Virus record (IMG/VR): IMGVR_UViG_2585427745_000020
Direction: 5' to 3' (one strand)
Source of the DNA: a virus
Taxonomy: Duplodnaviria > Heunggongvirae > Uroviricota > Caudoviricetes
Length of the DNA: 51,184 nucleotides
The position numbers and the translations under genes were made by a program. Shown here piece after piece: positions 17,483 through 51,184 of this stretch. A model generated the notes under the pieces. It worked only from the letters and a program-made list of their open reading frames with translations. It did not search any database and was not told the origin of the DNA. Positions within the stretch are counted from its first letter, which is position 1. Each line of letters starts with the position of its first letter.

Positions 17483-18376
17483 TTATTTTTTTGCCTTTTT
17501 AGCGGCGAAATACGGCGTCCAGTCACCAGTTTCCAGCGCCTTGGCTTTCAGTTTGTCGAGGTTATTGATTACTGCGCCGTTGCTCCCCTTAACTGTCGGG
17601 GTTGTGGCTGCCGTGGTTTTTGCTTTTGGCATGATTCTGGCCTTCGATTCGATACGTTCCAGCAGACGACCAATTGCTACGGGGTTGGTAGCTTCTGCCA
17701 GTTGCTTGCGCAGTTCAGCGTTGCGGCCGAGCGCCAGAACAACGATTTCCGGCTTCTCTGACTCAAGAAGGATCATGTCCTGAATATGAACAGGAACATC
17801 TTCGCGTACAGCCTGCTCTGCATCCTGGTAGCCAGCCACTTTCAGTGCTTTTACTCTCTGCATGTAATTGGCTGCTTTCTGCTGAAGCGTTGCGGTACGC
17901 GCCTCTTCCTCTCGTTTCCGCTCTCGTACTTGCTCCTGGTATTTGCCGTTTTCCTCTGCCCACTTAGCCATACGTTGCTGATAGATTTCTTCATCGAAAC
18001 CGATGTCCTCATCATCCAGTTTTGGCATTCGCGGTGGTTGAGTGATTACCGGCTGCTGCTCGACGGGTTTCTGAGACTGACGCATCAGCTCTTTCAGCTC
18101 GCGGTCTTTCTCTTTAATCGTCTTGCGCAGGTGTTTTACCAGTCCATGCTCTGCGCCATCTTCGCTGGTTGGCGAATCCAGCTTTTCGTCACCAAAGTAG
18201 AATTCCTGTTCTGATTCGTCGTCATCAGTTTCAGTAGCTTCCTCTGCATCATTGCCGGAGGACTCACTGCCATCTTCTGTTTCGACTTCTTCAGCCAGTT
18301 CGACATCATCAGGAATCTGCTCTGACGCGTCGGTTTCGATTTCAACTTCTGGTGTGTTTTCTGCCATCTGGTCCAT
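17483..18376 (-). CDS. Scaffolding protein
   Basis: 297 aa; acidic N-terminus, helical charged body; between portal and coat. Confidence 0.75.
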   Translation of the reverse strand: MDQMAENTPEVEIETDASEQIPDDVELAEEVETEDGSESSGNDAEEATETDDDESEQEFYFGDEKLDSPTSEDGAEHGLVKHLRKTIKEKDRELKELMRQSQKPVEQQPVITQPPRMPKLDDEDIGFDEEIYQQRMAKWAEENGKYQEQVRERKREEEARTATLQQKAANYMQRVKALKVAGYQDAEQAVREDVPVHIQDMILLESEKPEIVVLALGRNAELRKQLAEATNPVAIGRLLERIESKARIMPKAKTTAATTPTVKGSNGAVINNLDKLKAKALETGDWTPYFAAKKAKK

Positions 18377-40938: not shown

Positions 40939-41121
40939 AAAGACCTTTCTCTACATTTCACTTCATTACATAACCACTTAAAAAAACAGTAAGTTATCAC
41001 CGAATCGGCCTGATTTTCATTTCAGTTAATTTCATGACATTACAACCTCGTGATGGTATAAGTGATGGTATTCCCCAGTTCGATATGCAGATACCATCAA
41101 TTTACCAAAATGAGTACAGAT

Positions 41122-42396
41122 ATGGCCATTAATGTGCTTTCCCCCAAACAGATAGAAAACGCCAAGCCGAAGACCAATGATTACAAACTTACCGATGGAG
41201 GGAGTTTGTATCTACTGGTACGAAAGACTGGTGGAAAATACTGGCGTATGAATTATCGTTTTGATGGAAAACAAGTGACATTAGCATTAGGGGTCTACCC
41301 AGATGTCTCACTTGCAACAGCGCGGAAACGGCGTGATGAAGCCAGGCAACTACTAGCCGATGGTCGTGATCCTCGCGAAGCAAAGAAACCCAAAAAGGAA
41401 GACCCAATTTCCCCCACGTTCGAGAGTGTTGCCAGAGAGTGGCATAGTGGAACGATGGGGCATCCTGAGTGGAAAGAGATCACCCGTAAAAAAATTCTCC
41501 GAGAAATGGAAAACCACCTCTTTCCTGCCATCGGTTCAAAGCCTATCGATACGCTCAAAACCCGTGACTTGATGCCGATGCTGGTTGAGATGACTGAGAA
41601 AGGAATTGGTGCCACAACGAGCCGTGTAAAAACCACTATGACGAGCATCTTCCGTTATGCCGTGCAACGTGGAATTGTCGATTACAACCCTGCCCACGAT
41701 CTAAAAGGTGCAATTACGGCCCCCAAAGTACGACATCGCCCCGCACTACCTCTCGAACGTTTACCTGAACTGTTAGCGAAAACGAGAAGTTACACGGGAA
41801 GACCATTGACTCGCCTAGCAGTTCTCTTTTCCCTGCACACTTTTGTGCGATCCAGCGAACTACGACATGCCAGATGGGAGGAGATCGACATTGAAAATGG
41901 GCTATGGACGATACCAGGACAACGTGAAGAGATCGCAGGGGTTAAATTCTCAGATCGGGGTGCAAAGATGGGGGCTGCTCATTATGTCCCGCTATCTAGT
42001 CAGGCTATCGGGGTACTGGAGGATATAAGGAAAATCAGTGGTGAATATCTGCTGGTTTTTCCCGGTGACAGCAACCCATATAAACCGATGAGCGAAAACA
42101 CAGTTAATAAAGCACTGCGAACGATGGGTTACGACACTCAAACTGATGTTTGCTTGCATGGGTTCAGGGCGATGGCCTGCTCTGCACTGACCGAATCAGG
42201 ACTCTGGTCACGCGATGCAGTTGAACGGCAGATGAGTCACCAAGAAAGAAACGAAGTGCGGGCAGCATATGTGCATCTTGCGCAGCACATGCAGGAACGC
42301 CGCAGAATGATGCAATGGTGGTCTAATTATCTGGAACTAAATAAGGACGAATTCCATGCTCCTTATGACTTATCAGGTATTAACATTATCAATTAA
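41122..42396 (+). CDS. Tyrosine integrase of the satellite (P4-type annotation family)
   Basis: ORF 41062-42396; by alignment with IntS the likely start is MAINVLSPKQIENAKPK (41122; 41110 also possible); about 424 aa. Confidence 0.85.
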   Translation: MAINVLSPKQIENAKPKTNDYKLTDGGSLYLLVRKTGGKYWRMNYRFDGKQVTLALGVYPDVSLATARKRRDEARQLLADGRDPREAKKPKKEDPISPTFESVAREWHSGTMGHPEWKEITRKKILREMENHLFPAIGSKPIDTLKTRDLMPMLVEMTEKGIGATTSRVKTTMTSIFRYAVQRGIVDYNPAHDLKGAITAPKVRHRPALPLERLPELLAKTRSYTGRPLTRLAVLFSLHTFVRSSELRHARWEEIDIENGLWTIPGQREEIAGVKFSDRGAKMGAAHYVPLSSQAIGVLEDIRKISGEYLLVFPGDSNPYKPMSENTVNKALRTMGYDTQTDVCLHGFRAMACSALTESGLWSRDAVERQMSHQERNEVRAAYVHLAQHMQERRRMMQWWSNYLELNKDEFHAPYDLSGINIIN

Positions 42397-42426
42397 ATAC
42401 TCTTATAATTTAAAACAGAGGTCATA

Positions 42427-43308
42427 ATGCAGCATTCAACAGAGAATGAAACTATATTCTTAGGAAATCTATGGATTGACAAAAAAATACCACCATTAGA
42501 ATATTGTTCATTTGAACGCGCTTCAAGACTATTAGAATGCGAGATTGATGATTTATTACATCTATACGAAATAGGCGCTTTTAATATCGCATTCAAGGCG
42601 GATGGACTTGCAGTTAGATTTAATGTTAATTTCCTCAATAAAAATCAGAAAATGGAAATTGACTTAATTCATCCCGTATTAACTAATCAATCACTAGAGA
42701 TGGAATTTTCAACAATATGGTATGACCTTAAAGATGATTCCTTTGAACATTTTGAAAATGGGCTTCAAATTATAGGATTTGCCTGTGGTATTTGGTACGC
42801 CGATGATATGATAAGTAACATAAAAAATGGATTAGCTATAGATCCAGATTATGAATTCAGGCTTAAACCGGTAAAAATACGAGATAATGTTTTGATGGCA
42901 ACGGCCTCATATGAAGGAAATAAGGTCATTGAGATTCCATTTGAAGATCTTCTTATCATGCGAAGAGATTTAGAGTTAATATGGAAATCAGTAAAAACTG
43001 GAATTCCTATGCCAAGTTTACTTACGAAAAGAATTTCATCTGAACCTAAAATCCCCAAGCGATTAAATAACACTGCTGAGCATCATGCAAAAAATAGGGA
43101 GGGGTTATTAAATGCAGCCATATATATATTAGCAAAATACCCAAGCGAATGTCGTGGTGAAAGAAAAGAGATAAGTCCTGAAAAGTGGACTAACGCCATA
43201 ATTAAACATTTAGGAGAGCTACCTCCAATATTTATCACTAATGAACAAGAAATCTTAAGAAAATTACGATTAGCGGTTAATCATGCGGGATTAAAACAAA
43301 AGGGGTAG
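42427..43308 (+). CDS. Hypothetical AT-rich cargo protein between integrase and AlpA-like gene
   Basis: 293 aa; RBS AGAGG; markedly lower GC than the flanking integrase and primase genes; no recognised motif. Confidence 0.55.
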   Translation: MQHSTENETIFLGNLWIDKKIPPLEYCSFERASRLLECEIDDLLHLYEIGAFNIAFKADGLAVRFNVNFLNKNQKMEIDLIHPVLTNQSLEMEFSTIWYDLKDDSFEHFENGLQIIGFACGIWYADDMISNIKNGLAIDPDYEFRLKPVKIRDNVLMATASYEGNKVIEIPFEDLLIMRRDLELIWKSVKTGIPMPSLLTKRISSEPKIPKRLNNTAEHHAKNREGLLNAAIYILAKYPSECRGERKEISPEKWTNAIIKHLGELPPIFITNEQEILRKLRLAVNHAGLKQKG

Positions 43309-43410
43309 ACTGAAACAATCTACAGGTAGAGTTGATTACACTACCTTCACAGCATTTTGATATCCCCATAGTATCTGCCGTGTTCATTACATAATACGGC
43401 AGGTAATTTC

Positions 43411-43626
43411 ATGACATTAAAAACTTATCCTATCACTGGACATGCCCGCCCACGAGCTACTGCTGACTTTTTGCAAATAAGTACGGTTACTCTCTGGCGC
43501 TGGGAAAAGAACAATCCTGAATTTCCCAAATCTATACGCATTTCAAAACGGGTATCTGTTTACGATGCACAAGAAATTAGGCAGTGGGTTAAAGCTCAAT
43601 CAGCAGGATTGGAGGAAGTAGTGTAA
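43411..43626 (+). CDS. AlpA/Vis-family DNA-binding protein (excisionase-like regulator)
   Basis: 71 aa; MerR-like winged-helix pattern (ADFLQISTVTLWRWEKNNPEFPKSIRISKRVSVYDAQEIRQWV). Confidence 0.7.
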   Translation: MTLKTYPITGHARPRATADFLQISTVTLWRWEKNNPEFPKSIRISKRVSVYDAQEIRQWVKAQSAGLEEVV

Positions 43627-43675
43627 TGACAATATTAACAAAGCTGGGGAGAAAAAAGCCTCCCCAACGTATTAA

Positions 43676-43870
43676 TCAATTCTTTGGTTCTAAACCTCGG
43701 CTTTGTAACTCTTTGCGTAGAATGCGCTTGATCCAAGCCGCTAGCGATTCATCGCCATCCTGCTGTTGTGCTTGTTCCATCAGTTCACGCAGTTCAGGGT
43801 CAAGTCGGAACTGGAATGGCGGATTCCCACGTCTTTCATTTTTGTGTGTTGACACGTCAATTACACCCAT
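43676..43870 (-). CDS. Ribbon-helix-helix (Arc/MetJ-type) regulator of the satellite
   Basis: 64 aa; PPFQFRLDPELRELMEQ beta-strand/helix motif; divergently transcribed from the downstream operon. Confidence 0.6.
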   Translation of the reverse strand: MGVIDVSTHKNERRGNPPFQFRLDPELRELMEQAQQQDGDESLAAWIKRILRKELQSRGLEPKN

Positions 43871-43884
43871 TGTAATGTATTTAT

Positions 43885-43903
43885 GTGTAATGACACATTA
43901 CAC
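43885..43903. promoter_or_regulatory. Palindromic operator candidate (GTGTAATG-ACA-CATTACAC)
   Basis: Perfect 8-bp inverted repeat with 3-bp spacer in the divergent promoter region, 15 bp upstream of the RHH start. Confidence 0.45.
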
Positions 43904-43986
43904 ACAGAAAAACAAAATAGCAACGCCCCGGAGTGTTTGCAGCAGCACCGAGGCGTCTGACCAGCACGTTATATGAGGTAACGAAG

Positions 43987-44163
43987 ATGGCTAAACAGAA
44001 GTGTACCTGGTTATTTGCGGCGATCAACCGCAGTCAACGCAATGCCCGTCCTGTGATGTTAAGGATCACCGCAGATAACGAACGATCAGCGCGGCGCAGA
44101 CTTGCCCCGGACTATGTACTGAGCTTTGCCGGGCGCATTCCCTGCGGAGGTGAACATGCGTAA
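43987..44163 (+). CDS. Hypothetical small basic protein
   Basis: 58 aa from ATG 43987 (MAKQKCTWLFAAINRSQRNARPVMLRITADNERSARRR...); track ORF begins at 43933. Confidence 0.35.
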   Translation: MAKQKCTWLFAAINRSQRNARPVMLRITADNERSARRRLAPDYVLSFAGRIPCGGEHA

Positions 44164-44515
44164 TTATCCGCACCCCGGCGAACGCTGGCAGCATGAACGT
44201 GGCTGGACGGTCACGATTATCCGATTAATAGAAGCCTCGCCCTCTGTGGCGCTGGTTAATCCTGAATTCAGCTGTGAAGTGCTGATACGTCATGACAGCG
44301 ACAACCAGCTTTCTTCCTGCCCTCTGGCATGGTTTGAACAGCGGTATACGCGCCTGTTTGATGTACCGCTCTTTAAGCCTGCACCAGCTCCTGCAGGCAG
44401 TAGTGGTTCCGGCCCGCTGACACTGCATCCGTCTGTGCTATTTATCCGCTGGCGGGAGCGTACCATACGGCGTTCTGCTGAGCCTGACGACGGTCACTAT
44501 TCAAAGTTTCTCTGA
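44156..44515 (+). CDS. Hypothetical protein
   Basis: 119 aa from ATG 44156 with RBS GGAGG (44146-44150). Confidence 0.5.
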   Translation: MRNYPHPGERWQHERGWTVTIIRLIEASPSVALVNPEFSCEVLIRHDSDNQLSSCPLAWFEQRYTRLFDVPLFKPAPAPAGSSGSGPLTLHPSVLFIRWRERTIRRSAEPDDGHYSKFL

Positions 44516-44546
44516 CAAAATACCGCTGAAAACGGAGTAATTCACG

Positions 44547-44831
44547 ATGAATATTTCAAACGGGCTCAACGGTGCTCAGGGCCACACTTTGCCTGAAAAA
44601 CACAATACCGGTGCTTTTGCCTATGGGTTGTCAGAGGACAGTTTCGGAAAGCTGACCCGCGCAAGAAATGCCTGCGACATGCTCCAGCTTCTCTTTTCTG
44701 AATACCCGTCTCAGGCCGGAGCACTGGACGCAGGCTGTGCGCCTGGTGTCGCCGCGCTGATGGAGTACCTGCTGGCAGATTTGACGGATATTGCACACAG
44801 CTGCGCACTGATTGAAGGAGGTGCCAGATGA
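44547..44831 (+). CDS. Hypothetical protein
   Basis: 94 aa; ATGA overlap with the next gene. Confidence 0.5.
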   Translation: MNISNGLNGAQGHTLPEKHNTGAFAYGLSEDSFGKLTRARNACDMLQLLFSEYPSQAGALDAGCAPGVAALMEYLLADLTDIAHSCALIEGGAR

Positions 44832-45211
44832 ACCAGCCGCAGGTTTCCATTTTCCCGGTAGAAATGACCACCGCGCTTTACCGGCGGGCTATTGCTTCAG
44901 CATGGCGGCAGAAAATGCTGAACGAAACTGGCAGTGATCAGTATGGTCCGCACAGCCTGACAGTGGAGCGTATTGAAATGGCCATTGCGCTGCATATCGA
45001 GTGCGTACTGATTAACGAGTACGGCGAAGTGCAGGGCGCCGCTGCCGCGCTGGCACTGCTGACTGACATGCTGGAGCCGTCACTGCTGACCGCGCCGCCG
45101 GTACTGACCGCGCGCGGCTGTGAAGTGATGGCGGAGATGTACCGCACGCTTCCGGCGGCCTTTGATGACTTCTGCAGTACCGGTGTGACGTTGTATGAGG
45201 GGGAAGTATGA
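44828..45211 (+). CDS. Hypothetical protein upstream of the primase
   Basis: 127 aa; coupled to the primase gene (ATGA overlap). Confidence 0.5.
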   Translation: MNQPQVSIFPVEMTTALYRRAIASAWRQKMLNETGSDQYGPHSLTVERIEMAIALHIECVLINEYGEVQGAAAALALLTDMLEPSLLTAPPVLTARGCEVMAEMYRTLPAAFDDFCSTGVTLYEGEV

Positions 45212-47880
45212 CAATACAGACGGTTACGCAGGTTTCAGCCGCCGCACGGGGGAAATGGCCCGTTATTCTGCAGATGCTGCGTATTGATGTACCTGAAAAC
45301 GGCAGGCACGGTCCCTGCCCGAAATGTGGGGGCAAGGATCGTTTTCGCCTTGATGACCTTGACGGGCGCGGGACGTGGATCTGCAGCCAGTGTGGCAATG
45401 GTGACGGTCTGGATCTGGTTAAGCTCGTAACCGGTTACAGCGTCAGAAAGGCTGCGCAGGAGGTGGCGCAGGTGCTTAATGTGCCGGATATGCAGGAACT
45501 GCCTGTTAAGCCTGCCAGACAAAAAGCCCCTAAACGCGACATGGGTCTTACCGTGGCGGCGCTGATGAAAGAGAGCCACACGGGAGAAAGCGCCTATCTG
45601 ACAGGAAAAGGGTTCGCCGGATACCCGGCCTCTCTGACCGGAAGCGTACAGCATATCAGCGGTAAGGATTTTCCTGCCGGTTCCCTGCTGTTACCACTCA
45701 CGACCAACACCGGAGCCGTGACCGGTGCACAGCTTATCGCCCCGACGGGTGAAAAAAGCATACTGCCCGGCAGCACGATGAAAGGCGCGTTTGTGTCGCT
45801 CAGCCCGTTACCGTCTGAACCACCGATACAGGTGGTGATTACCGAAGGTTACGCTACGGCGCTGACGGTAAGCCAGCTCACTGCCGGATGCGTAGTGGCT
45901 GCCATATCTGCGGGCAACCTGCCCAATGTGGCGCAGTCGCTGCGGGCACGCTGGCCTGAGGTAAAAATTATCATCGCCGGTGATAACGATTTTCAGGACG
46001 GGGGTGAGAATCCCGGCAGAGCCTTTGCTGAACGGGCGGCAAAAGCTGTTGGCGGCTGGATGACGCTGCCACCAGGAGAGATTAAGGCTGACTGGAATGA
46101 CTTTCATCGGGAGCACGGTATTACCCGTGCCCGTGAAGCCTTTCGCAACGGTCTGGTACTGTGCGGGGAAAGCCGCACGCAACTGCCGCACGGGTTCCGT
46201 CTTACCCAGGAATATCTCTGGTATGAAAAGCAGGTACAGCGCAACGGTGAGACGGAGATCCAGAACGTCAAAATATGCAGCCCGCTGCGCGTGACGGCAA
46301 TCACCTGCGATGCCGATGGCGGTAACTTCGGACGACTGCTGGAATGGGAAGATACGTGGGGTGAGTGTCGCCGCTGGGCGATGCCGATGGAAATGCTGAG
46401 CGGCAGTGGTGAGGAACTGCGCCGGGTACTGCTGGTTAACGGGCTGTCTTATATCAGCACCACCGGTGAGGCACGCGCACGCCTGATGGAATATATCTCA
46501 CTGTGTAAACCGGAACGCCGCGTGACCTGCGTCAGTCGTACTGGCTGGCATGGTCAGGTTTACGTCCTGCAGGATGAGGTCAGCGGTGAAGGTGCAGAGG
46601 GTGTCATTCTCCAGACCACTTCCGTGCAGGGGCGTGATTTCCGCGTGTCGGGCACAACAGAGGAATGGCGGGAGCATGTATCCCGCTACTGTACCGGCAA
46701 CTCCCGCGTGGCATTTGCTGTCAGCCTGGCCTTTGCTGCACCACTGTTACGGCTGGTTGGTATGGACGGCGGCGGCTACCACCTCAAAGGGGAATCGACA
46801 GACGGTAAGACCACCACCATGAAAGCAGCAACCTCCGTCTGCGGCGGGCCTGACTACTGGCAGACATGGCGGGCCACCGGCAACGCGCTGGAGGGATGCG
46901 CCAGCCGCCGCAACGATGCCGCCATGATGCTTGATGAGATCCGGGAAGTTGACGGACGCGAGGCAGGCAATATCGCCTACATGCTGGCAAACGGTCAGGG
47001 CAAGGGCCGTGCCGGTACGGACGGTGAGCTGCGTACCCGTAAGCAGTGGCGCCTGTTGTTCTTTTCAACTGGCGAGTTGTCTCTGACCGAACATGCGGCA
47101 AAGGCCGGTGAGCGTACTTTTGCCGGGATGGAAGTCAGGATGATCCAGATCCCCAGTGATTCCGGGAAGTTTGGCGTTTTTGAGGAGCTGCACGGCTTCG
47201 ACAGCGGCAAGGCTCTGGCAGAGCATCTTGAATGGGCCACGTCCTGCTACTACGGTTCGCCGTTCCGGGAGTGGCTGAAAGCACTGACCGCTGATCTTAA
47301 CGGACTAACGGCACAGGCAAAATCGCTGATGAAGGAATATGCTGCCGCCCTGACTCCGAAAGATGCAGGCAATCAGGTGGGCCGGGCTGTGAACCGCTTT
47401 GCACTGGTGGCGATGGCAGGTGAACTGGCAACCCGTCTGGGTATCACCGGCTGGCCTGAGGGTGAAGCACTGCGGGCAACCCGCGTCTGCCTGAACGCAT
47501 GGCTGAAAGATCGCGGGCACACCGCCAATCAGGAAGATATCGCCGCACTGGAGCAGGTTCGCAGTTTCTTTACCGCGAATCAGTACAGCCGCTTTGCAGA
47601 CTGGTATGACGAGCGCAACCGCCCCGGCAATATGGTGGGCTGGCGAAGGGTGGAGAAAGGCAGTACCGCGCAGGGCACGGAAGCTGTCACTACGTTCTAT
47701 GTCATGCCGTCCGGCTGGAAAGAAATCTGCAGGGGATTTGACCCGCGCAAGGTGGCGCGTCTGTGCGCAGATCGTGGATACCTGCTGCCCTCCACTGATG
47801 GCAAACTCCAGACAACCATTCGCCCGCCAGAGATGAATCCCCGCAGGCTCTATGTCTTCAACAGCGAGGTGCCGGGTTAA
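45208..47880 (+). CDS. Primase-helicase (P4 alpha-like: zinc ribbon, TOPRIM, D5-type NTPase)
   Basis: 890 aa; N-terminal CPKCGG...CSQCG zinc-binding motif; Walker A-like GESTDGKTT; typical satellite replicase architecture. Confidence 0.9.
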   Translation: MTIQTVTQVSAAARGKWPVILQMLRIDVPENGRHGPCPKCGGKDRFRLDDLDGRGTWICSQCGNGDGLDLVKLVTGYSVRKAAQEVAQVLNVPDMQELPVKPARQKAPKRDMGLTVAALMKESHTGESAYLTGKGFAGYPASLTGSVQHISGKDFPAGSLLLPLTTNTGAVTGAQLIAPTGEKSILPGSTMKGAFVSLSPLPSEPPIQVVITEGYATALTVSQLTAGCVVAAISAGNLPNVAQSLRARWPEVKIIIAGDNDFQDGGENPGRAFAERAAKAVGGWMTLPPGEIKADWNDFHREHGITRAREAFRNGLVLCGESRTQLPHGFRLTQEYLWYEKQVQRNGETEIQNVKICSPLRVTAITCDADGGNFGRLLEWEDTWGECRRWAMPMEMLSGSGEELRRVLLVNGLSYISTTGEARARLMEYISLCKPERRVTCVSRTGWHGQVYVLQDEVSGEGAEGVILQTTSVQGRDFRVSGTTEEWREHVSRYCTGNSRVAFAVSLAFAAPLLRLVGMDGGGYHLKGESTDGKTTTMKAATSVCGGPDYWQTWRATGNALEGCASRRNDAAMMLDEIREVDGREAGNIAYMLANGQGKGRAGTDGELRTRKQWRLLFFSTGELSLTEHAAKAGERTFAGMEVRMIQIPSDSGKFGVFEELHGFDSGKALAEHLEWATSCYYGSPFREWLKALTADLNGLTAQAKSLMKEYAAALTPKDAGNQVGRAVNRFALVAMAGELATRLGITGWPEGEALRATRVCLNAWLKDRGHTANQEDIAALEQVRSFFTANQYSRFADWYDERNRPGNMVGWRRVEKGSTAQGTEAVTTFYVMPSGWKEICRGFDPRKVARLCADRGYLLPSTDGKLQTTIRPPEMNPRRLYVFNSEVPG

Positions 47881-47914
47881 GGCTTTGCGTGAGTCTTATT
47901 TATTAAGGGTAACA

Positions 47915-48103
47915 GGTGAAACAGGTGGAACAACCGTATTTTACAAGGGCTGAACCTGTTTCACCTTCTGAAATAGTGAGGTGGAACAGATGTAACGCCA
48001 GCCAATCCGCTGTTCCACCTTGTTACCCGCGATGTTCCACCGGTGCAGTGTATATAAATACTTTATAAAACAAAGCAGTAACACATGTTTCACCTGTTCC
48101 ACC
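47915..48103. repeat. Iteron cluster (eight TGTTYCACC/GGTGRAACA octamers): ori/crr-like primase binding region
   Basis: Octamers at 47915, 47924, 47957, 47980, 48011, 48033, 48086, 48095 in both orientations, with an AT-rich block (48050-48075); resembles P4 ori/crr type I iterons. Confidence 0.65.
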
Positions 48104-48191
48104 GCATCAGGGACATAAAGCAGACTGAAACAGAGGGCATTTTTATCTGGCTGGCTTTCATAGCCACGTCTGAATAACCGCAAGCGCCCGT

Positions 48192-48209
48192 TGTGCCAGC
48201 CACCACACA
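48192..48209 (+). promoter_or_regulatory. Ogr/Delta-type late promoter dyad (TGT-N12-ACA)
   Basis: TGTGCCAGCCACCACACA about 73 nt upstream of the sid-like start codon. Confidence 0.5.
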
Positions 48210-48281
48210 CTGATCACCGATAGTGTGCTTGTGTCAGCCACGACACAATTGACGTAACGAACCAACCCGACAGGAGAAGTC

Positions 48282-49025
48282 ATGAACAACACCGCAGTGA
48301 ATAACAACCTTTCCACTTTTCCGGCTGTAACGCAGCGGGCACTGGAAACCATGAACACAGCCAGAAACGCATGGCTTGAAGCACGTCGTCAGCAGAAAGC
48401 GGCAGCGGATAATATTGCGACAATCCGCCAGCGTCGCGCTGAAATGGAAGCCACGACGAACACACTGAATGAGGAGTGGCGCACGCTGTTTCGTGAAAGT
48501 CAGGGCGTGGTCTCAAAGGAAATGAAAAAACTGCGCACGGAAATTGCGCTGGGACGAGAAACGCTTGAGGATTTTGATGAGCTGCTGGCGGCTCAGGAAA
48601 GCGAAAATGCACTTTTGCCGCAGAAAGCTGCAGAATTAGCCGGAAAGTATATCCACGCGCATAATATTCTTGTGGATATTCGTGCAAAACAAATCTGGGA
48701 AGATTTTATGCAGTCGCATGGAAAAGCGCTTATTCAGACGCTGAGCCTGCTTAAATCCACAATGGGCCGGGAAGCCAGTGCCGTTGTGGGTGTGGTGAAT
48801 TCAGTTAATGACCCGGACACAGTGCTGAAAGACTTTATTCATAAACATATCACCAGACCGGCTCTGGCTAACGATGCGATGCCTGAACAGGACCCGGTGT
48901 TTAAACTGGCGGGAATTGCCCCGGATTATGCGGCGCGTCTGGATTTCAGTAATCAACTCTCTCCGGCAGCTATGCATAAAATTAAGGTTCGTCAGGAACT
49001 TGCTGAGAAGGAGAAAGCAGTATGA
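48282..49025 (+). CDS. sid: Sid-like external scaffold / capsid size determination protein
   Basis: 247 aa; RBS AGGAGA; Psu/Sid-family motif (EDFMQSHGKAL); directly upstream of psu. Confidence 0.55.
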   Translation: MNNTAVNNNLSTFPAVTQRALETMNTARNAWLEARRQQKAAADNIATIRQRRAEMEATTNTLNEEWRTLFRESQGVVSKEMKKLRTEIALGRETLEDFDELLAAQESENALLPQKAAELAGKYIHAHNILVDIRAKQIWEDFMQSHGKALIQTLSLLKSTMGREASAVVGVVNSVNDPDTVLKDFIHKHITRPALANDAMPEQDPVFKLAGIAPDYAARLDFSNQLSPAAMHKIKVRQELAEKEKAV

Positions 49026-49573
49026 CGGCCCGAGGCACGCCTGACCAGGCACTTACCAGTTTTCGGAATGCCCGTATTCTGTGGGCCGGACATAGTGAGA
49101 GCCGAAAAGCCGTTGAACAACAGATAGCATCTCTCCTTGCTGCCACAGAAAAACCAGCAGATTATGCCCGACAGCTCGAATTACTGCGGGAACGTCTGGA
49201 TGTGCTGAAATGGCAAATTAACTGTGCTGCGCGCGAATGCATTTACTCGCAGCATTTACTGATGGAGGCCTGCACAGAAGCAGCTCTCAGCAATTTTATG
49301 CAGGCGAATGGGGCAGCCCTGACATCTGCACTGGCTCCGTTCCTGAAGGGACGCGGAGGGGTTGACGTTGCGTCCCGTATATTACGCAGTGCTCTGGTTC
49401 GCCAGCTGGCAATAACACCGCCTGAAATTGCCGGGGATTATCGTGAGATCCTGGATGAATCCGGTTTGATACCTGACCCCGGGATGATTCGTGATTGCCA
49501 GGACTCTTACACCCCGGCACAACATCTGCATTTTCAGCAACGCCTGAATGACATTAACGATATACAGGAGTGA
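49022..49573 (+). CDS. psu: Psu-like polarity suppression / capsid decoration protein
   Basis: 183 aa; KWQINCAA, SNFMQANGAALTSALAP and YTPAQHLHF resemble remembered P4 Psu blocks. Confidence 0.7.
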   Translation: MTARGTPDQALTSFRNARILWAGHSESRKAVEQQIASLLAATEKPADYARQLELLRERLDVLKWQINCAARECIYSQHLLMEACTEAALSNFMQANGAALTSALAPFLKGRGGVDVASRILRSALVRQLAITPPEIAGDYREILDESGLIPDPGMIRDCQDSYTPAQHLHFQQRLNDINDIQE

Positions 49574-49851
49574 TTTTAATGGCACTTAAATGTCCGGAAT
49601 GCGGTACAGTTGCACACGCCAGAACAGCAGCCTATGAAGCTCCGTCAGTTAAACGCTCGTGGTATCAGTGCCAGAATCTGGAATGTTCCTGCACATTTAC
49701 GGCACTGGAGAGTGTGGATAAGATAATCATGAAACCCCGGCGCAATGAACAGGAACCAGACAAATCACAACCCCCGGTAAAACAACAGCAAACGCTCAAT
49801 CGCTATGGCTCCGCGTCAAAACTGTCAAGCCGTCAGCAGATTCCTGTCTGA
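49570..49851 (+). CDS. Ogr/Delta-family zinc-finger late transcription activator
   Basis: 93 aa; CPECG...22 aa...CQNLEC zinc finger as in P2 Ogr and P4 Delta. Confidence 0.85.
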   Translation: MILMALKCPECGTVAHARTAAYEAPSVKRSWYQCQNLECSCTFTALESVDKIIMKPRRNEQEPDKSQPPVKQQQTLNRYGSASKLSSRQQIPV

Positions 49852-49871
49852 TTAGAAAAAACGCCCACGTA

Positions 49872-49897
49872 ATCCCGGTCGAGTACCGGGATTTTTA
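49872..49897 (+). terminator. Rho-independent terminator after the late operon
   Basis: 8-bp stem ATCCCGGT / ACCGGGAT with loop CGAGT, followed by TTTTAACG. Confidence 0.7.
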
Positions 49898-50335
49898 ACG
49901 CCTTTTCCCTGGCTGGCCTGAGAGCGCATGAGTGCATGTCTATAGCGCATGAAAACGCATGAACCTTATGCACCATTTTTGACGAGAAAGCCCTTGTGTG
50001 GTGGCTTCTGAGACGATTTATGAGGTGCATGAAAACCAGTCTGTTAAGCGAAGCGGGCAGGCGTGCGGGGCTGTTCGCATCAACATAAAAATAACGGGCT
50101 GATATAGTTATAAAATCAAATGAACTCTTTTAGTACGACATGGGTATGTGCGCCAGTAGCAACGTCAGCCCCCAAGCTTTCTATTGTTCTTTTCTGTTGT
50201 ACCATCAATACGTACCGATTAGCTCCTAAGCATCAATATCAGTTTGAACGTATTGCTTTGAACTAATTTTTAGATGATTTTTTTCATTAAAAAATTATAA
50301 TGTTGTAGATAAAAAGAGAATCTTATAGAGGCGTT

Positions 50336-51184
50336 ATGTCAAATAAAGTTGATGTTTTTTTGAGCCGAGTTAGCCATGTATCACAGTTTGTATTGGTGGC
50401 ATTTGCTATTTTTGGATATTTTTATACAGTAAGACCAATTTACCAAAAGGAACTTTTATCAGAAGAAATTGCAAAAAAAGAAGTTGAATTAAATAAATTA
50501 AAAACAGCAATGGAAAACTCCCAAAAATTTATAGAGAATAATAAAATCTTACGAAAAGAATTGGAGGGAAGCATTGCCAAACTTGATTTACAATACAAAG
50601 AATCAGAAGAAAAATTAAATTCAATAAATTCTGAACTAAGAAAAACTTTAAATGAACTAAATAAACAAAAGACCATTTCCAAAAGAGCGGTCAATGCAAA
50701 CAACAAGAATCTTGAATCTGTTTTCTGGGAGAATTTTTCGGGGCTAGTTGGAGTAGTTTATATTTCTAAGAGCACAGATTTTGTGAACAATACACTGGGT
50801 GACGCCAAAACAGCCTATAATACTCCTAGTAATTTATATATATCTCCTTATGATGCAATTAATGAAGCATTAAAAAATGGCAATCATAACTTTATCTCAA
50901 GTTCAGAAAATGTCCCTGAAAATATCCGCAACAAAATTCTAGCAAAGATCCGTCGCGCTATTGAAAAAAATAAGATTTCATTAACAAAAAAACCTATCGG
51001 TTTTGATGAAAAAATTAATAGTCTGATAAAAACTATAGAGTCAACTAAGTTACGCAAAAATGAAAACGAAATAATGAAAAATAACACTGCAGAAAGAGAA
51101 CTATCATCTTATATTTTCCTGATAAATGGTCAATCAAGAATCCGCGCCATGGATTTCTTAAAAGACATTCAACATTTAGACTAA
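50336..51184 (+). CDS. Hypothetical AT-rich cargo protein (N-terminal transmembrane helix, long coiled-coil)
   Basis: 282 aa; very AT-rich; perfect TATAAT at 50296-50301 and RBS AGAGG upstream; stop codon is the last three bases of the window. Confidence 0.55.
   Translation: MSNKVDVFLSRVSHVSQFVLVAFAIFGYFYTVRPIYQKELLSEEIAKKEVELNKLKTAMENSQKFIENNKILRKELEGSIAKLDLQYKESEEKLNSINSELRKTLNELNKQKTISKRAVNANNKNLESVFWENFSGLVGVVYISKSTDFVNNTLGDAKTAYNTPSNLYISPYDAINEALKNGNHNFISSSENVPENIRNKILAKIRRAIEKNKISLTKKPIGFDEKINSLIKTIESTKLRKNENEIMKNNTAERELSSYIFLINGQSRIRAMDFLKDIQHLD

Follow-up and report, generated by a model that had tools for sequence, protein, structure and literature searches.

A two-gene cassette of paralogous membrane proteins carried as variable cargo by a P4-like satellite, a candidate anti-phage system

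What is the function of a very AT-rich gene that lies at the end of a phage satellite, immediately beyond its late genes? This question was raised by an open reading frame (ORF) at positions 50336..51184 (plus strand) of the IMG/VR record IMGVR_UViG_2585427745_000020, a DNA of 51,184 nucleotides assigned to the Caudoviricetes and referred to below, at its full length, as the window. The ORF extends from an ATG at 50336 to a TAA at 51182-51184, which is the final codon of the window, as a first-pass annotation of this DNA had stated, and it encodes a bitopic membrane protein of 282 amino acids (aa) that contains no cysteines. The same annotation had placed the ORF in the defence-hotspot position of a P4-like satellite. 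Our analysis leads to a tentative answer, to which we give a probability of roughly 0.4: this gene, here called cargo gene 1, and a second gene located just outside the window may form a new candidate anti-phage cassette that acts as an exclusion-type block of phage genome entry at the cell envelope.

Cargo gene 1 is a genuine gene, because its homologues form 62 clusters and the comparison of the E. coli copy with the Salmonella copy gave a dN/dS of 0.125. A chance ORF was thus ruled out by the existence of homologues together with a dN/dS of ~0.12. The gene was also confirmed to be far more AT-rich than the satellite backbone, with a GC content of 0.28-0.31 between positions 50200 and 51000 compared with 0.48-0.62 between positions 44000 and 50000. 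When composition was calculated per gene, cargo gene 1 had a GC content of 0.298 (0.24 at third codon positions), whereas the values for the backbone genes alpha, psu, and delta were 0.589, 0.529, and 0.498, respectively; the cargo overall has a GC content of 0.29-0.30 and the backbone one of about 0.5-0.59.

Any partner genes had been expected to lie beyond the window edge, and the extension of the sequence was possible with a 100%-identical element found in E. coli strain PD4 (L001; window coordinate = L001 coordinate + 34999). One gene encoding a 234-aa paralogue, here called cargo gene 2, starts 16 bp downstream of cargo gene 1 and is followed by a hairpin (12-bp stem, −21.4 kcal/mol, z −5.5) and by the right attachment site attR. 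The att repeats correspond to the 16-bp 3' end of a tRNA-Arg gene (TTCGATTCCTGCAGGG) and are located at L001 positions 5916-5931 and 17516-17531, 11.6 kb apart, so that the element measures 11.6 kb, the cargo lies within it, and the cargo consists of exactly two genes. The right copy of TTCGATTCCTGCAGGG is located ~600 bp past cargo gene 2, and the intervening DNA is AT-rich and non-coding. A downstream region made up only of conserved satellite backbone genes had been named in the first-pass annotation as an argument against cargo; what was found there was cargo gene 2, the hairpin, non-coding DNA, and attR.

The segment of the window from 49000 to 51184 was compared by megablast with 5,426 complete E. 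coli genomes. The psu/delta backbone was detected in 848 E. coli records, only seven of which continue through the AT-rich ORF; in the 841 others, the backbone similarity stops at query positions 1074-1079, that is, at window positions 50073-50078. Cargo gene 1 is therefore rare and patchy in this species (7/5426 genomes), and the cassette is missing from >99% of the satellites with the same backbone, so that the satellite can do without it. Inspection of eight elements revealed four different cargoes at one fixed junction. Besides the cassette described here, the slot held a YecA/SEC-C protein encoded on the opposite strand (L035, L039, and L041), the ShosTA system composed of a DprA and a PRTase protein (L036, L038, and L040; PADLOC matches ShosA 2.5e-90 and ShosT 1.4e-93), or a 398-aa hypothetical protein with a weak PADLOC match to DzbB (L037). 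The cargo thus changes from one sister element to another while the backbone stays the same, which identifies the slot as genuinely variable, and in some of these satellites it holds a validated defence system, ShosTA. Like ShosTA, the cassette described here comprises two genes in exactly this slot; unlike ShosTA, which encodes cytoplasmic DprA-like and PRTase enzymes, it encodes two membrane paralogues.

The proposed P4 defence-hotspot position was supported: the slot is variable, follows the late genes, and holds ShosTA in sister elements. The layout is not canonical, however, as the integrase gene is located at the opposite end. In canonical P4 elements, the hotspot lies between psu and int, whereas the present slot lies between delta and attR, with int at attL; the two would be adjacent only across the att site in the excised circle. 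The published picture of P4 hotspots beside a psu-delta-sid module fits this slot (PMC9122126, PMC13586616), as does the presence of variable, AT-rich, self-contained cargo at a conserved non-coding backbone end, but the gene-1/gene-2 cargo is not among the systems that these two papers describe. Atypical arrangements similar to this one, and a minor primase-att hotspot, have been described (PMC13586616). The hotspot search of Rousset 2022 was based on an integrase gene located at most 10 genes downstream of psu (PMC9122126) and would miss the layout described here.

The two genes were also found together outside E. coli. In Salmonella, Enterobacter hormaechei, and Cronobacter, the pair is located 480-530 bp after an Ogr_Delta gene. 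The Salmonella pair lies in the same satellite type and the Cronobacter pair in a reduced island, while the Enterobacter hormaechei pair (L026, 1-11565) follows the primase gene and a second Ogr_Delta gene of a canonical P4-like element whose main psu-side hotspot is filled by a SIR2-STAND gene. This arrangement represents either two filled cargo slots in one element or the remnant of tandem satellites. Genes 1 and 2 diverged in parallel, with amino-acid identities of 83/78%, 51/52%, and 46/41%, and the dN/dS of gene 2 (0.123) is close to that of gene 1; both cargo genes are under purifying selection. Singletons exist as well, of the gene-1 type in Pantoea and of the gene-2 type in Pectobacterium and Klebsiella indica. 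Taken together, the two genes form a self-contained unit that is under selection, encode paralogues that cross the membrane once, and occupy a variable slot.

The relationship between the two proteins is confined to their N-termini. A BLASTP comparison aligned residues 4-56 of gene 1 with residues 6-58 of gene 2 only (49% identity, E 1e-12), and a profile-profile comparison (hhalign, A1 vs. A3) gave a probability of 99.8% over 71 N-terminal columns only. The two products are paralogous only in their first ~55-70 residues. A relatedness of the two heads was considered and rejected, as hhalign aligned the first 71 columns only.

The N-terminal transmembrane (TM) helix and long coiled coil recognised in the initial reading of the sequence were both recovered. 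Gene 1 encodes one hydrophobic segment at about aa 15-33, and its AlphaFold2 (AF2) model, obtained with an 18-sequence alignment (mean predicted local distance difference test score, pLDDT, 88), contains an unbroken helix from residue 3 to residue 153, followed by a helical head (residues 159-279). Three parts can be distinguished along the coding strand. The N-terminal module (aa 1-55; 50336..50500) consists of a short, presumably cytoplasmic tail, the largely apolar TM helix (SQFVLVAFAIFGYFYTV), and the juxtamembrane motif PIYQKELLSEEIAKKE. The predicted helical stalk (aa 34-153; 50435..50794) was modelled with a pLDDT of 90-95 over residues 41-140, would be ~18 nm long if straight, and gave weak SMC/coiled-coil-type matches only. 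The C-terminal helical head of the AF2 model (aa 159-279; 50810..51172) is specific to the gene-1 subfamily.

Conservation is concentrated in the module. In the alignment of 18 gene-1 homologues (A1), the invariant residues are Q17, L20, A24, F26, G27, Y28, F29, Y30, T31, V32, P34, Y36, Q37, L41, and E43, and the conserved positions beyond the module are E132, P171, Y172, P194, and L216. The module is retained in the gene-2 homologues, in which two cysteines, C84 and C121, are invariant; in the model of one of these homologues, P0064 (78% identical; pLDDT 86.8), a helix spans residues 5-84 and the head is compact and helical. The juxtamembrane helix shared by both proteins is near-invariant (FGYFYTV.PIYQ..L.E.IAKKE). 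It is followed by predicted stalks of ~120 residues in gene 1 and ~50 residues in gene 2, and then by heads that differ from each other and are all-helical. The P-x-Y-Q motif (aa 34-37, window 50435-50446), which is present family-wide, also occurs in the alpha-1 helices of type IV pilins. This likeness is probably a coincidence, because the prepilin leader and Glu5 are absent and no N_methyl Pfam match was obtained. A type IV pilin-like N-terminus was rejected: there was no Pfam match at E ≤ 0.1, and the helix is preceded by LSRVSHVSQ, with no G-F-T-L-I-E.

Which side of the membrane do the variable parts face? We infer an N-in/C-out topology, with stalks and heads that would be periplasmic, from an even-cysteine bias in the heads and from the charge distribution. 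In the head families carried by the module (30 unrelated clusters), the modal cysteine count was even in 18, odd in three, and zero in nine (binomial p 0.0015), and an excess of even cysteine counts is a signature of disulfide-bonded exported domains. Ahead of the TM helix, an Arg is the only positively charged residue that is conserved, and none of the 12 residues that follow this helix in the gene-2 product is positively charged.

The module is not restricted to satellites. A full HMMER scan of 1.84 billion representative proteins, with clusters at 50% identity, identified 729 module-bearing proteins at E ≤ 1e-3 and 423 at E ≤ 1e-10, and most of the matches cover the N-terminal 60-110 positions only. 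The module was found in gamma-, beta-, and alpha-proteobacteria, in Pseudodesulfovibrio, in Ignavibacterium, and in Porphyromonadaceae. A Pfam search of 126 distant family representatives did not reveal any domain beyond coiled-coil noise. A conserved operon partner across the wider family was also rejected, as the neighbours are heterogeneous. The Roseateles member is located 48 bp downstream of HamA/HamB, the Pectobacterium member is beside a RES toxin gene, and the Pantoea member shares an ssrA island with HEC-03. Another member adjoins the tail-sheath gene of a myovirus prophage, a site that we take to be the P2 Z/fun accessory position. The gene-2-type singleton of Klebsiella indica (L008, 5855-13506) is flanked by the gene for an 886-aa Toprim primase on one side and by a P2-family major capsid gene on the other; possibly, this element is a satellite with a capsid gene of its own. 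All the Enterobacterales contexts examined were a satellite, an island, or a small islet by a toxin gene.

The cassette may be compared with proteins that protect cells from within the envelope. Like the superinfection-exclusion protein SieA of phage P22 (PMC10883804), the two proteins are small, non-enzymatic, predicted to lie in the inner membrane, borne by a mobile element with their own expression signals, and proposed to act at the envelope. They differ from exclusion proteins in that no sequence or fold similarity was found, and in the presence of two paralogues, long predicted periplasmic stalks, and a TM module that is spread across phyla. T4 Imm, T4 Sp, and HK97 gp15 are further superinfection-exclusion membrane proteins. 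We propose that the gene-1 and gene-2 proteins would pair via their shared TM/juxtamembrane module and that the resulting hetero-oligomer would carry its two dissimilar heads into the periplasm at unequal distances from the membrane. In this position, the heads could meet the tail tip or the ejection proteins of an incoming phage, genome entry would be blocked as in superinfection exclusion, and the satellite-carrying cell would be protected. Three features favour an entry block: the lack of an enzymatic or signalling partner in the cassette, the predicted periplasmic side of the variable parts, and the apolar character of the TM helix. Published assays of such loci weigh in favour of a defence role: six of eight randomly chosen unknown P4 hotspot loci gave phage protection (PMC13586616), and of the P4 and P2 hotspot systems that had been cloned, more than one-third showed activity (PMC9122126).

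Several observations weigh against an anti-phage role or against this mechanism. A hotspot position is by itself no proof of defence. The search with defence-system profiles that had been suggested in the first-pass annotation was run with PADLOC-DB v2.0.0, and no defence model matched; the best match of gene 1 was JetC at E 0.062, which is coiled-coil noise, and gene 2 had none. The cassette accessions are not mentioned in the literature searched or in the supplements of Rousset 2022 and DefensePredictor, the supplements of PMC13586616 being outside this search. No homologue was found by tblastn in 50,697 phage records, and the tblastn matches were to the N-terminal module only, in two Burkholderia plasmids. 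The TM helix is the best-conserved part of these proteins, which is unusual among known exclusion proteins. Gene 1 itself encodes no cysteine and the charges flanking its TM helix are ambiguous, so the topology signals are indirect. Finally, several distant members of the family are located in ordinary chromosomal sites, for example, after an RND pump or near nif genes.

Other comparisons did not place the proteins in a known family. Profile searches of both cargo proteins against Pfam, PHROGs, and NCBIfam returned coiled-coil noise only, as did the comparison of sequence profiles with the PDB. Fold searches in the PDB and BFVD gave no meaningful match, and the gene-1 head had no fold match at E < 0.1. 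The domains of the six new P4 systems Crouga, Bandua, Aernus, Toga, Reve, and Hailong are, by description, unlike those of these proteins (PMC13586616).

The chief rival to an entry block is abortive infection, which we consider unlikely. The periplasmic heads would sense an envelope event, such as tail penetration, peptidoglycan cleavage, or the arrival of ejection proteins, and the conserved module would be the effector, which would either oligomerise and collapse the membrane potential or perturb a conserved inner-membrane machine, so that the cell dies before phage release. A constant module joined to swappable domains fits the effector-plus-sensor logic of many defence proteins, and the near-invariance of the module from Enterobacterales to Bacteroidota and Desulfobacterota is easier to reconcile with an effector or a docking element than with a simple membrane anchor. 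Where systems from P4 and P2 hotspots include TM proteins, these are generally taken as suicide effectors (PMC9122126). However, the TM helix SQFVLVAFAIFGYFYTV is largely apolar and has no obvious polar pore face, and the cassette includes no enzymatic or nucleotide-signalling partner. It is doubtful, too, that the cassette serves an accessory envelope function unrelated to phages, as a periplasm-facing scaffold for maintenance, stress, or the positioning of a complex that would be carried as fitness cargo by the satellite. Such a role of the family is suggested by the distant members found in ordinary chromosomal neighbourhoods, many of which are single genes with no mobile or defence neighbours, by the spread of 729 representative clusters across phyla, and by the lack of similarity to any defence protein in PADLOC-DB v2.0.0. 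On the other hand, the Enterobacterales contexts are all satellites, islands, or toxin-side islets, the gene is rare and patchy in a slot otherwise filled by ShosTA, and the fast-diversifying heads on a constant module suggest an arms race.

A role in the satellite life cycle, for instance in modulating lysis in the manner of a spanin or holin or in manipulating the helper phage, is very improbable, because >99% of the satellites with the same backbone lack the cassette. Gene 1 does follow directly after the late operon, and its product resembles the i-spanin Rz in its predicted type II topology, with a TM helix at the N-terminus and a periplasmic coiled coil whose length would suffice to reach the cell wall or the outer membrane; the gene-2 partner, in addition, has cysteines capable of forming disulfides. 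Yet the match to the Rz-like spanin family PHROG 89 is at chance level (E 0.016) and, as noted above, the phage records contain no homologue. The partner is a second TM-module paralogue without a lipobox and not a lipoprotein o-spanin, the context is a cargo slot without a lysis cassette, and the genes are compositionally foreign, with their own leader and terminator. Rz is about half the size of these cargo proteins.

The satellite pair could also be one instance of a wider phenomenon. The module would then mark a large, unannotated, cross-phylum family of periplasm-facing bitopic proteins with swappable heads that constitutes a new envelope-level anti-phage class, with members that turn up repeatedly as satellite cargo, at prophage accessory-gene (moron) sites, and beside defence systems. 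The invariant module would dock to or gate a conserved inner-membrane machine, the heads would recognise parts of incoming phages, and the satellite pair would be a heteromeric two-head version. This extension to the whole family is advanced here with considerable doubt.

The non-coding DNA that surrounds the cassette was also analysed. The strong terminator reported after the late genes is represented by a perfect 9-bp hairpin (49871..49898, plus strand; stem 49871-49879 / 49885-49893, 5-nt loop, T-run), an intrinsic-terminator-like structure located after delta that corresponds to the inverted repeat I4 (100% complementary; RNA fold −17.5 kcal/mol). Its strength was less well supported, as its z was only −2.2 and it was not called by the consensus terminator scan. 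It is followed by the conserved non-coding end of the backbone (49899..50075), which contains the GCATGA(AAAC) repeats D1 and D3 and a G-rich stretch. This region is possibly a packaging (cos-like) region, and the G-rich stretch at ~50058-50085 is conjectured to be cos-like. This assignment is an inference only, because the 19-nt cos that P2 and P4 share, and in which this satellite differs from them, was absent: the 19-mer GGCGAGGCGGGGAAAGCAC had no match allowing up to three mismatches. A blastn comparison of the spacer after delta with phage sequences also gave no match. The GCATGA direct repeats extend over window positions 49916-50036, with GCATGAAAAC at 49947 and 50027 and GCGCATGA at 49924 and 49955, and could be packaging or regulatory sites for the helper phage of the satellite.

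The AT-rich leader of the cargo (50076..50335, plus strand) contains the repeats D2, I1, I2, and I5 and can be aligned with the Salmonella copy. The TATAAT (50296-50301) and the ribosome-binding site GAGG (50328-50331) that had been attributed to the cargo are both present on the plus strand, as read in the sequence; the promoter scan did not list this site, because its −35 element is poor, and listed instead TCAACA-17-TATAGT at window positions 50080-50108. TTTGAAC direct repeats (50243 and 50257) and an AT-rich palindrome (50264-50297) overlap the putative cargo promoter (region 50243-50323) and could be an operator. A 48-aa leader ORF (50120-50266) was rejected owing to frame-breaking indels in the E. 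coli/Salmonella alignment, and an Rfam scan of the cargo region gave nothing credible.

The satellite in the window is an 11.6-kb P4-like element integrated at argW, behind a P22-like prophage. It has an integrase, an AlpA/HTH (helix-turn-helix) regulator, a primase, a size of ~11 kb, and att repeats at a tRNA gene, as do P4-like elements. In L001, the tRNA-Arg gene is followed by the genes encoding the integrase, a 293-aa hypothetical protein, an AlpA-like regulator, an Icd-like protein, further small proteins, and the primase, and then by the sid-like gene, psu, delta, the 282-aa ORF, the 234-aa ORF, and the chromosomal gene dsdC. The core genes (window 41062-49851), namely the integrase, AlpA, and primase genes, the sid-like gene, psu, and delta, are all encoded on one strand, which differs from the canonical P4 layout. 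According to Pfam, the primase (45208-47880, plus strand) has a Zn-ribbon/Toprim/DUF927 architecture, and its TOPRIM and DUF927 domains differ from the D5_N/Pox_D5 type of the canonical element L026.

Concerning the late genes said to precede the ORF, which in P4-like satellites serve to subvert the helper phage, psu (49022-49573, plus strand; Pfam Psu E 9e-45) and the ogr/delta-like zinc-finger gene, the last backbone gene before the slot (49570..49851, plus strand; Pfam Ogr_Delta E 7.5e-16), were identified by Pfam, whereas the Sid identity of the 247-aa ORF at 48282-49025 (plus strand) is given by its position and RefSeq naming only. This ORF has a weak match, to the Psu model only (E 2e-9), and this match points to sid and psu being paralogues; in the Salmonella satellite, one 253-aa Psu-family gene takes the place of the two. 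In E. coli SW070917 (L038, 4023-8488), the sid-psu-delta-ShosTA block abuts lambdoid prophage early genes and a truncated HTH gene adjoins the sid-like gene, a junction that suggests satellite-prophage recombination. A second compositionally foreign gene, encoding the 293-aa protein (window 42427-43308, GC 0.34), is located directly after the integrase gene. Unlike the cargo, it is fixed in the backbone, being kept in all the backbone variants inspected (E. coli and Salmonella), and it had no match in Pfam, PADLOC, PHROGs, or NCBIfam.

Swappable anti-phage cargo on satellites is already established, and another such cassette was to be expected rather than surprising. The general phenomenon is known; what is new here is this cassette, its atypical slot, and a dark protein family. 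The slot between delta and attR escapes the psu-to-int search that was used to catalogue P4 hotspots, and a whole set of cargo may thus be under-sampled. The family itself is sizeable and uncharacterised, and combines an unusually conserved TM/juxtamembrane module with many unrelated, predicted periplasmic heads. To our knowledge, few defences act in the periplasm. If the cassette proves protective, it would provide a simple two-gene handle on the detection or blocking of phages in this compartment, and a role could be proposed for hundreds of hypothetical proteins.

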